Shown here piece by piece: positions 20,873 to 39,652 of a stretch of 46,220 bases of DNA (positions are counted from its first letter, which is position 1; every line of letters begins with the position of its first letter). The position numbers were made by a program, and so were the translations under genes. The DNA lies in assembly GCA_019058015.1 (NCBI GenBank), contig JAHLWH010000095.1, forward strand, positions 1-46,220. The letters run 5' to 3'. The notes under the pieces were generated by a model. The model did not search any database. It worked only from the letters and a program-made list of their open reading frames with translations, and had not been told where the DNA came from. Source of the DNA: Promethearchaeota archaeon. Lineage in GTDB: Archaea > Asgardarchaeota > Lokiarchaeia > Sigyniarchaeales > SOKP01.

Positions 20873-20969
20873 GCCTCTGTAGCCTAGTGGTATAGCGTCT
20901 GATATGTATATGTATTAAAGCACAGAAGTCGTAATCAGAAGGTCGAGGGTTCAATTCCCTCCAGAGGCT
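20873..20969 (+). tRNA. tRNA-Thr(CGU) with a 25-nt intron at 32/33 (20904-20928)
   Basis: Acceptor GCCTCTG/CAGAGGC, anticodon stem TCTGA/TCAGA, spliced loop TT-CGT-AA. Full BHB at the junctions. Confidence 0.9.
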
Positions 20970-36412: not shown

Positions 36413-36620
36413 ATGATCCACCTTTCATATCCACACACTCGAGCGTTTGAGAACGGCGGGCTGAAAGGGTCGCCCGGAAGCTTCCCTCTTACACCCCCAG
36501 TCTCACCAACCCTGTCTTTTACAGGAGCTCTCGTCCCCCTTCCACGGTGCACGTCACCGCACCCCGCTCATCATCGATATGATATCTGCGAAGAGGGAAT
36601 GGGAGATTATTTTCTGGTTG

Positions 36621-36652
<32 letters not shown>

Positions 36653-36778
36653 TCTTGGCGCGTGGCTGCCCGGCGATGCCTTGTCAGACAACCGGTAAAC
36701 TAGAGGCGCCGGCCTCATGTTCCTCTCGTACTGGTGAGACCTTACCATCAATCTCCCAACATACCTGTCAGATAGAAT

Positions 36779-36821
<43 letters not shown>

Positions 36822-37454
36822 TTAATGGGCGAACAGCCCCACCCTTGGAGGTTATGTGCGCCTCCAGGATAGGAAGAGCCGACATCGAGGAAGCAAGCCG
36901 CGAGGTCGATAGGGACTCTTACTCGCGACAACTCTGTTACCCCCGGGGTAACTTTTCTATCACCTCAGCTAGCCACAAAAACCTATACTGAGGATCGCTA
37001 GACCAGGCGTTAGCCTCAGGATTCCTCGCTTTGCAGAATCCTGTCAGGCCAGCTTTTGCTCTTATACTCTACAACGGATTTCTGTCCCGTTTGAGCTGAC
37101 CTTTGGATACTCTAGATATCTTTTCTAGAGTGAGCCGCCCCAGCCAAACTGCCCGCCTGCGGATGTTCAACGCATAAAGCGCCGTTAGTGTTTTAAAATA
37201 AAAAAGTCGGTGTTCCATTGTTGCATTCCCACCAACCGGAGTCGATGGTTCGACGCTCCCGACTACACTCTGTATCTTATTCCAAAACACAACAACAGGT
37301 TGCAGTAAAGCTCCACGGGGTCTTCTCGTCCCGACAGGTATCTCTGGACTGTTCTCCAGAGTGTGATTTCATTCGTCAGAAGGCTGGGACAGTGGGGAGA
37401 ACGTTGGACCCTTCATGCACGTCTAAACTTACTAGACAAGGCGTTTGGCTACCT

Positions 37455-37485
37455 TTCCCCTTCCTTAACGAGATCGTTAAGGAAT
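37455..37485 (-). other. 31-nt BHB intron in 23S rRNA at 1927/1928 (E. coli numbering)
   Basis: Interrupts CTCTCTTA|AGGTAGCC. 10-bp inner hairpin, CTCT/GGGG central helix, two 3-nt bulges. Confidence 0.92.
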
Positions 37486-37782
37486 TAAGAGAGTTATAGT
37501 TACTCCCGGCGTTTAGCAGGACTTACTCGCGTTGGACCGCGGATTGATCATACTGCCACTGGCCAGGTTTCAGTTTCTGTAAACACGCTTTCGCGATATC
37601 AGAAACCTATGTTTTTATTAAACAGTCGTCCCCCCCTAGTCACTGCGACTTAAAGATCCCTACACACTAATGCATGCAGAAATCTTCAAGCAAGCCTTAT
37701 CCCAAAGTTACGGCTCTAATTTGCCGATTTCCCTAGCCTCCTTTACTCGAACACGCCTTAGGCTACTCACCTTGGGGCACCT

Positions 37783-37812
37783 ATCGACAGTACTTCGAAT
37801 TTCGTAGTACTA
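37783..37812 (-). other. 30-nt BHB intron in 23S rRNA at about 1617/1618
   Basis: Interrupts CCGACAC|AGGTG. CGAC/GTCG central helix, AGTACT/AGTACT inner helix. Confidence 0.87.
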
Positions 37813-39652
37813 GTGTCGGTTCTGGGTACGGACACGGCGTTCCTTGAATTTTGCCTTTTCATTGAATCCCAGGATCAGCAGAACCCTCCACATTTGGAAG
37901 GCTATTCATGCTTTATGGTGGGTCTCAAATTTACTCTACTCGCCACCATTATACATTTAAATAGAGAGATGTACGACAACTCTACTCCACCTACCTAAAA
38001 CTGTCAGCAAAATTCCGTGCGTTACCGCAAAATGTAGCGCCGTGGTACAGGAATATAAACCTGTTTCTCTTTCGCGCAGAACATTTAAGAATGCACTTAG
38101 GACCGACTAACTCTTCGCTGACGACGCATTGCGAAGAAACCCTTGCCCTTTCGGCGGATGGGATTCTAACCCATCTATGCTATTACTATCGCCAGGATCT
38201 GCACTCCGGAACGGTCCACTGGAAGTCACCCCCCAGCTTCCGCCCGAACCGGACGCTCCCCTACCGGATCACGAATTCTTCTATTCGTGCCCCTGGGTCT
38301 CGGCAGCAGATTTAAGCCCCGTCCATTTTCGGGGCTATTTTTCTCGGCAAATGAGCTGTTACGCACTCGTTAAAGAATGACTGCTTCTATATCCATCTTT
38401 TTGCTGTCTTCGAAAAATAACGCCCTTTAGTTTGACACTTAACCTGCATTTTGGGGCCTTAACCCAGGTCTAGGTTGTTCCCTTCTCGGCGATGACCCTT
38501 ACGGCCACCAACCCGTTTCCCAGTGTCTTCAGCGCCGGCAAATTCGGAGTTTAAGAGAAAAGGGAGGAATTTCTTCCCCTTGCTTTCCAATTAGTGCTCT
38601 ACCTCACCGGCTACCTCGACTGAGACCTGGCTGAGACCAGCTTCGGGGAGAACCAGCTAAACCCAGTCTAGATTAGCCTTTTGCTCCTATTCTCAGCTCA
38701 TGAATACGAATTGCACGTCAGTTATCCTGCAGACCTCCATCACCCTTTCGAATGACTTCATCTTGGCCAAGAATAGATCGACTGGCTTCGGGTTTTACAG
38801 CAGAAACTTTAGGCCCTTTCAGACCATTTTTCTGGATGCATCCCTTAGAAGATTATATAAAATATCCGAAGATTTTTATATAGATCTAATGTGATGATGC
38901 ATTTGCAAAAATATCGGTTTCCCTATGCCTACAGAGGTTATCTCCTTAAGCTCGCTTCTACTATAAACTCCCTGGCCCATGTTTCCAGACGGATGATGCA
39001 ACTCTGGTCCTCTAGTCTCGAATGAACTGTTGCCAGCATATCTTCGACTAGAATCTATCCTTTCGAGCCGCATCCTTAACAAACTATTTGGTTTCAAGCA
39101 CTTTTCACTACCCTTCCGGGTTGCTTTTCATCGTTTGCTCACGCTACTAATTCGCTATCGGTCTTGGAGAATATTTAGATTTGCCAGTTTGTGTCTGGCA
39201 CATTCATACGAGAAAACCATCCCGCACTACTCTGGGTATCCAGTATCAACCTTGTAATTTACGGTTACACGGCTATCACGCTCTATAGCTCTTCATTCCA
39301 GAAGTATTCACCTTCATTACCGAGGTCGTGCTGGACCCGTACTCCACATCTCCCCAACGTTTCCCTTGGGGATTCGGTTTGATCATTTCCGCTTTCGCTC
39401 GCCGTTACTTACGGAATCACTATTGTTTTCTTTTCCTCCACCTACTAAAATGTTTTACTTCGGTGGGTTCCCCACCCCTAACGGAGTTTTCATGGATTAT
39501 TAGGCCATGAAAGGATGTCCCATTCGAGAATCTCAGGATCAGAGTCTACCTGCGACTACCCTGAGCTTATCGCAGCTTGTCACGCTCTTCATCGGTTTCC
39601 AAGCCGAGATATCCACCAAATAGTGTAGGCGTATTGGATAATACTCAGAGGA

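Follow-up and report, generated by a model that had tools for sequence, protein, structure and literature searches.

Site L1927 of the archaeal 23S rRNA gene is a described intron site. In the crenarchaeote Vulcanisaeta distributa it holds Vdi141.L1927, a 586-bp intron that encodes the 169-aa LAGLIDADG endonuclease I-Vdi141I (PMC2602781); the original prediction, made from the letters of the DNA, had named L1927 as a crenarchaeal intron site, and this report of the Vulcanisaeta intron confirms it. The same source gives the target of I-Vdi141I as nearly identical to that of I-PpoI from Physarum (PMC2602781). I-PpoI belongs to the Physarum group I intron PpLSU3, for which nearly the same target beside helix 69 (H69) is described there. 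PpLSU3, however, is a self-splicing eukaryotic ribozyme with a His-Cys box endonuclease, and its splicing mechanism is unrelated to that of the intron reported here. Archaeal group I introns are listed for the LSU sites 1923 and 1931 (PMC6125680, Table 1).

Very short introns have been described in 16S rRNA genes. In the Thermoproteales, BHB hairpin introns of less than 50 nt occur at seven of 13 intron loci, including the ORF-less Pog.S1205 (Jay and Inskeep 2015, PMC4496867). As far as that account describes them, introns of the Pog.S1205 type resemble the present one in that they are ORF-less, shorter than 50 nt, shaped as a BHB hairpin, located in conserved rRNA and patchily distributed. 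Their hosts are the 16S genes of hyperthermophilic Thermoproteales, whereas the present host is a Lokiarchaeial 23S gene. Furthermore, Pog.S1205 is reported to be co-converted by a neighbouring endonuclease intron, while the present intron has no such neighbour. The BHB introns of Asgard tRNA genes, as presented in PMC11291895, share the enzyme system and the motif with the present intron. Here, in contrast, the host is 23S rRNA and there is no sequence similarity to other loci of the genome. For rRNA, Penev et al. 2020 (PMC7594248) mention the removal of 'known intronic regions' and an 'analysis of introns', for which their main text gives no detail. Full-text searches turned up no account of mini-introns in 23S genes of Asgard archaea; the supplements of Penev et al. 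may bear on the novelty.

In this report a 31-nt insert at L1927 of a Lokiarchaeial 23S rRNA gene is analysed. It is very probably an ORF-less, protein-spliced archaeal BHB intron. With Vdi141.L1927 it has in common the site by name, the archaeal 23S gene and the protein-spliced class, and the two are likened by site and class; the former is a 586-bp crenarchaeal intron with an endonuclease, whereas the latter is a 31-nt Lokiarchaeial intron with no ORF. Kind and site are both already in print, and the element is a further small example, ordinary in itself. Its chief value is to document that intronless, mini and ORF-bearing alleles exist side by side in Asgard archaea at a single, universally conserved position. 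Asgard archaea are the closest prokaryotic relatives of eukaryotes. The locus adds a clean case to the emerging view that tiny enzyme-spliced introns are numerous in these archaea, both in their tRNAs and in the most conserved parts of their rRNA.

The insert interrupts an invariant joint of the 23S rRNA gene

The window, i.e. the whole analysed stretch of 46,220 nt, contains a 23S (LSU) rRNA gene on the minus strand (36427–39640). The gene matches Rfam RF02540 (LSU_rRNA_archaea) with 2579 bits over model positions 1–2987 and is full length. At 3214 nt it exceeds the 2987-position model by 227 nt. Apart from this gene and two tRNAs, there are no Rfam matches above the gathering threshold in the window. 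The assembly from which the window derives (G000) is of metagenome type, with 3.84 Mb in 283 contigs and a completeness of 94%. By genome-wide Rfam match it has a single 23S gene.

The insert occupies 37455–37485 and is read on the minus strand from 37485 down to 37455. Its boundaries are defined by the Rfam consensus, intronless congeners, E. coli numbering and the BHB geometry. In the local covariance-model alignment the model reads CuCuUA[1]gGUAGC and the gene reads CUCUUA[32]GGUAGC, which equals an insertion of 31 nt. In E. coli K-12 rrlH the flanks of the insert correspond to U1926-A1927 and A1928-G1929, which places it at L1927, three nucleotides past the 3' strand of H69. This numbering was taken from the annotated rrlH of NC_000913.3; a BLAST search of the window against E. 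coli genomes was matchless. The 5' splice site is predicted between 37486 (A1927) and 37485, the 3' splice site between 37455 and 37454 (A1928). Hence the coordinates 37455–37485 of the original prediction are exact on the position ruler, and its statement that a universal sequence is broken at 23S position 1927 beside H69 is upheld by both the Rfam alignment and the rrlH numbering.

Excision of the 31 nt in silico gives back the universal sequence CUCUUAAGGUAGC, which is identical to the Rfam consensus and to the intronless alleles of 16 relatives. Cutting and joining at the BHB sites accordingly restores the conserved mature sequence. The joint at which the insertion lies is invariant, both in the Rfam consensus and among all 16 relatives that are uninterrupted. 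Inserts of this type in a universally conserved stretch disrupt alignments, the annotation of rRNA, and primer and probe sites.

An insert of 31 nt cannot encode a protein, and the intron-encoded ORF that characterizes homing-endonuclease introns is absent. A mobile element of another kind, for instance a miniature transposon or part of a group I or group II intron, would fit the patchy occurrence among close relatives described below, and archaeal group I introns are listed for the neighbouring LSU sites 1923 and 1931 (PMC6125680). However, 31 nt is far below the size of a ribozyme core, no such core is found by covariance model and Rfam shows only LSU at this place. A blastn-short search of the own genome for other copies of the 31-mer yielded only exact 11–13-mers with E values of 0.86 or more. 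The boundaries moreover agree with BHB cut sites. There is hardly any chance that the insert is an element of this kind, and the protein-spliced BHB intron is the preferred reading. A dispersed intron family common to the tRNA introns was considered separately and rejected, the matches in the genome being chance-level 11–13-mers.

Geometry and stability of the BHB element

A BHB consists of two 3-nt bulges around a 4-bp helix; in substrates of this type the cuts follow the second of the three bulge nucleotides, and a marginal outer helix is common among them. In the present element the bulges lie on opposite strands and are 4 bp apart. The 5' bulge is UA↓A (U1926-A1927↓A) and the 3' bulge is AA↓A (A-A↓A1928), arrows marking the predicted cuts. 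All segments named in the following are on the minus strand. In the central helix the exon strand CUCU (C1922–U1925, 37488–37491) pairs with the intron strand GGGG (37457–37460) at four of four positions, forming two G-C and two G·U pairs. The inner hairpin (37461–37484) has a 10-bp stem (37475–37484 with 37461–37470) and the 4-nt loop AUCU (37471–37474), as obtained from the RNAfold minimum free energy (MFE) structure and from the anchored pair count. The outer helix is formed by A1919, C1920 and U1921 (37492–37494) with G1929, G1930 and U1931 (37451–37453) and comprises 3 bp, one of which is a G·U pair. With both flanking helices the element is of the strict hBHBh' form. Every part of the hBHBh architecture that was originally proposed (ACT/GGT outer helix, AA↓A bulge, CTCT/GGGG central helix, TA↓A bulge and 10-bp inner stem) is present. 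The motif is textbook in its geometry and its outer helix is marginal.

RNAfold assigns −19.5 kcal/mol (z = −3.4) to a segment of 61 nt. Its MFE structure replaces the strict motif by a 5-bp UCUCU/GGGGA helix and a 3x3 internal loop. Once the 5' strand of H69 is added to the segment, H69 together with the intron hairpin (−16.8 kcal/mol) comes out slightly more stable than the strict BHB (−14.9 kcal/mol). In the ensemble of a 96-nt segment the pair probabilities are about 0.64–0.65 for the central helix, about 0.26 for H69 and 0.003 for the outer helix. The outer helix is thus not predicted on thermodynamic grounds, and the element may act as the relaxed HBh' form.

In the mature rRNA, H69 (37489–37507, minus strand) consists of the 5' strand GGGAG (37503–37507), a loop and the 3' strand CUCUC (37489–37493), according to the Rfam structure line. 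The competition of the intron GGGG with H69 that had been postulated is borne out: the BHB takes positions 1919–1925, including the whole 3' strand of H69 (1920–1924). Because the BHB uses this entire strand, BHB and H69 are mutually exclusive. Splicing would have to precede the folding of H69, as it would for any BHB intron at L1927.

When the 31 nt are shuffled in place 200,000 times, a central helix of four pairs out of four arises in 1.8%, and together with an inner helix of at least 3 bp in 0.097%. The combination with an inner helix of at least 6 bp is found in nine of the 200,000 shuffles; the inner helix of the real insert has 10 bp. A loose BHB scan of the whole 23S gene returns 20 candidates, compared with 22.5 ± 6 in dinucleotide shuffles, and BHB geometry alone is therefore not significant. 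What is improbable is a geometry in register with insertion boundaries that were defined independently.

Presence and absence among close relatives

Among 41 related genomes, 19 matched the region; 18 genomes cover the L1927 site. The identical 31 nt are present in two of the 18, the genome of the window and G002 from the same genus. The other 16 are uninterrupted; they include members of three families as well as the congeners G001 and G004. An alignment with Asgard 23S genes had been suggested as a check, and with two carriers and 16 uninterrupted genes it agrees with an intron. The relatives that share the insert are titled Promethearchaeota, a phylum of the kingdom Promethearchaeati. This is the Loki/Asgard group, in agreement with the term 'Asgard-like' used at the outset.

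Over 280 flanking bases the intronless G001 is 100% identical to the window apart from the gap, and G004 is about 100% identical. The insert-bearing G002 is 97.3–97.5% identical over 2.3–2.4 kb. Two metagenome contigs also carry the insert: L108 (96.5% identity over 6.3 kb) has it in identical form, and L079 (95.6% identity over 10 kb) with one change, located in the loop-closing pair. Within the genus, presence and absence of the insert form a precise polymorphism. This natural coexistence of intron-bearing and intronless alleles is useful for studies of intron gain and loss.

A metagenome-type assembly of 283 contigs calls for caution, and rRNA genes are prone to misassembly, so that an assembly artefact or a chimeric join has to be weighed. 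The same insert is, however, found in another species representative and in the two metagenome contigs, which come from other assemblies. Furthermore, DNA runs from three other studies contain 27–29 of 30 sampled words of the stretch (0.90–0.97). In a salt-marsh DNA contig (X9), on the other hand, the 31 nt are missing and the SNPs are of G001 type. Intron-bearing and intronless alleles thus both exist as DNA in nature. An artefact is excluded for practical purposes and the insert is a genuine part of the gene.

L1927 is a recurrent insertion site

Inserts of 14–44 nt at the exact site were sought by pattern scan in 185,579 species genomes and a metagenome collection. The scan yielded 86 stretches (17 + 69). 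Of these, 31 with archaeal flanks were analysed and reduce to 18 distinct sequences; the other 55, with bacterial-type or unrelated flanks, duplications or chance matches, were left out. A search of 400 genomes of the phylum (143 with a match) together with the extracted regions contributed two further mini-inserts, an Odin variant and one of 49 nt. The resulting 20 distinct mini-inserts at L1927 are 28–49 nt long and represent at least five sequence families. Their hosts are Promethearchaeota (Loki), Odinarchaeota and a further archaeal lineage, with flanks that agree with the archaeal consensus of Rfam.

A BHB in register is present in all 20 mini-inserts. Pairs were counted by anchoring at the splice sites, with G·U taken as a standard pair; a three-sequence MAFFT alignment was unhelpful. 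The outer helix, both strands of which are exon, is paired in 60 of 60 cells. The central helix is paired in 80 of 80 cells in register, compared with 43–61 of 80 when its 3' strand is slid by 1–2 positions. Its intron strand varies (GGGG in the present gene, AGAG or GGAG elsewhere), and the exon partner CUCU is invariant. The first three inner pairs are formed in 59 of 60 cells and use two to four standard pair types per position (C-G/U-A; G-C/U-A/A-U; A-U/C-G/G-U/G-C), which constitutes covariation. None of 5000 partner permutations matched the observed pairing, a figure that overstates the support as the sequences are related within families.

A long intron at the same site is present in G273, which belongs to the same family (genus g2). 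It spans 1235 nt (256–1490 of L122), contains a 370-aa ORF and has the strict geometry (4/4, 3, 6). The ORF has no match in Pfam, NCBIfam, PDB sequences or the protein atlas, and its single-sequence AlphaFold model has a pLDDT of 33. By eye, the ORF contains motifs that may resemble LAGLIDADG. The intron ends, ACAAGG...CCUUGGGAGA, are those of one family of 32-nt mini-introns (ACAAGG...CCUUGGGAGAC), and because of this equality the sequences point to an origin of the 32-nt family by ORF loss. The present 31-mer has the site and the BHB register in common with the G273 intron but belongs to a different sequence family (AUUCC...GGAAGGGGAA); no long relative of it was found in the searches. Long ORF-bearing introns and mini-introns coexist at L1927 within Lokiarchaeia. 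The two forms at one site provide a natural series for the endonuclease-loss cycle.

The sole insert that misses the motif among 22 at L1927 is a 251-nt AT-rich sequence in G169 (L128). It starts like the 'ACAAG' family but offers the central helix no complementary 3' strand, which may reflect decay of an intron or faulty assembly. Degeneration has to be weighed for the 31-nt intron too, which would then be spliced inefficiently, with the gene becoming a pseudogene or giving partly defective ribosomes. The two G·U pairs of the central helix, the marginal outer helix and the lost 3' BHB half of the G169 relative would be in line with this. Yet the gene is the only 23S gene of a genome that is 94% complete, and it is otherwise full length with a score of 2579 bits. 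Across four lineages that are 2.5–4.4% apart nearby, the insert is unchanged or has one loop-closing change. In the other families, too, the BHB helices were scored with G·U as a standard pair. Degeneration is therefore very improbable, and a functional protein-spliced intron is the more probable reading of the insert.

Splicing machinery and RNA data

BHB introns depend on a host splicing endonuclease and an RtcB ligase, and the genome encodes both. Two ORFs of about 200 aa, on contigs C235 (869–1471, minus strand) and C115 (11248–11868), represent the endonuclease EndA. Each has both the N-terminal and the catalytic EndA domain (PF02778 and PF01974; 98.4 and 66.3 bits). By eye, one copy appears to keep a Tyr/His/Lys-like pattern and the other to be without the His. 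Judged by their sequences, the two subunits would fit an (alpha-beta)2 endonuclease, the type reported for Asgard EndA (PMC5829648). RtcB is encoded with a score of 577.5 bits. Together with the polymorphism within the genus and the BHB register of 20 out of 20 mini-inserts, EndA and RtcB support the initial proposal of a minimal endonuclease-less intron in an Asgard-like LSU.

ARAGORN calls introns in 23 of the 38 tRNA genes genome-wide; these are rough calls. With 23 of 38 genes called intron-bearing, the splicing system is in heavy use. One tRNA gene lies in the window itself (20873–20969, plus strand). It is a 97-nt Rfam tRNA, for which ARAGORN gives tRNA-Thr(CGU) and places an intron of 25 nt at a non-canonical position.

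Three metatranscriptomes (X15, X17 and X18) were compared with 37150–38100. Their contigs in this region are only 46–145 nt long, and none bridges the L1927 junction in either intron-bearing or spliced form. The cover of the intron interval by RNA contigs is nil; the depth of 458.6 for X15 in the bin 37438–37469 stems from the last 5 nt of an exon contig, and an interval without cover carries no evidential weight. As the intronless DNA allele exists in the environment, a spliced-looking read is ambiguous unless it carries linked SNPs of the G000 type, e.g. at 37243, 37915 or 38007.

Alternatively, the 31 nt might never be spliced and persist in mature 23S rRNA, forming a very small expansion hairpin where H69 meets H70. 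This would be compatible with the lack of spliced RNA in the metatranscriptome contigs, none of which spanned the junction, and with RNAfold, by which the strict BHB is not favoured. Expansion segments are a known feature of Asgard LSU rRNAs (PMC7594248), and the gene is 227 nt longer than the model. However, expansion segments reside in variable, surface-exposed helices, whereas L1927 is located in a universally conserved single-stranded joint. The complementarity of the 3' part of the insert to the exon in the exact BHB register would not be needed by a retained hairpin, and this register is kept by all 20 unrelated-looking inserts. In addition, a retained GGGG would compete with H69, and close congeners do without the insert. 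Retention is improbable on these grounds. Excision as an intron is preferred.

Proposed pathway and origin

The course of cleavage, ligation and circularisation would be as follows. In the pre-rRNA the 10-bp intron hairpin would form first, co-transcriptionally. The intron GGGG would then pair with the exon C1922–U1925 and A1919–U1921 with G1929–U1931, so that positions 1919–1925 would be captured in the BHB. An (alpha-beta)2 endonuclease would cut both bulges behind their second nucleotide (UA↓A and AA↓A), and RtcB would join A1927 to A1928 and probably circularise the 31-mer. The 3' strand of H69 would then be freed to pair with G1906–G1910.

As to its origin, the intron may be a selfish remnant, most likely the BHB core of an endonuclease-bearing L1927 intron that persisted after loss of the ORF. 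Its present carrier would be one small clade of a Lokiarchaeial genus. It is also conceivable, albeit unlikely, that the mini-intron is more than a tolerated remnant and makes the formation of H69, a key helix of the intersubunit bridges, dependent on splicing, as the BHB would keep the 3' strand of H69 until EndA and RtcB have acted. The many ORF-less mini-introns in 23S genes of Lokiarchaeia (L1617, L1917, L1927 and others) would then have spread without homing endonucleases, e.g. through reverse splicing or conversion with introns nearby.

Further inserts in rRNA genes

The 23S gene of the window contains a second mini-intron of 30 nt at L1617 (37783–37812, minus strand; CCGACAC↓...↓AGGUG), evident from the Rfam alignment ([1] in the model, [31] in the gene). 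It has the central helix CGAC/GUCG, an inner helix of 6 bp and an outer helix of only 1 bp. The L1617 insert is absent in G001, G022, G018 and G008 and in families f2 and f3, and it is diverged in G004 and G009. In G009 a C-to-U change in the exon is matched by a G-to-A change in the intron, which converts CGAC/GUCG into UGAC/GUCA and is compensatory.

Other inserts were observed close to L1927. In two members of family f1, genus g11 (L117 of G192 and L121 of G236), mini-introns of 30 and 57 nt follow U1917 in the loop of H69. Both form a strict BHB with a central helix of 4/4, inner helices of 7 and 6 bp and an outer helix of 6 bp that is the H69 stem itself. In genomes of other Asgard families (L123 of G310, L126 of G159 and L124 of G082), CUCUC is followed, at about L1923–1924, by inserts of about 800 nt. 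They lie a few bases upstream of L1927 and may be group I introns.

The pattern was also matched by L037, L074, L090, L091 and L110 and by the CPR-titled contigs L033, L038, L040 and L044, which have 23S flanks of bacterial type and 24–43 nt between the H69 motif and an AGGTAGC further downstream. Among these bacterial-type matches, some may represent genuine inserts in 23S genes of bacteria (CPR); others are ordinary sequence.

The 16S and 23S genes are unlinked in the genome of the window. The 16S gene is divided between contigs C111 (40453–41294) and C75 (22513–23228, L129), with the break at model position 828/829. Model positions 752–824 are repeated on C75 just upstream of the 16S part. 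The break may be due to a large intron or to a repeat that disrupted the assembly.

Additional short inserts are present in two relatives of the window's genome. In G009 (L007) they follow rRNA positions 2328 (30 nt), 2784 (38 nt) and 2850 (133 nt), and in G022 (L008) a 36-nt insert follows position 2730. These inserts suggest that there are many mini-intron sites in this family.
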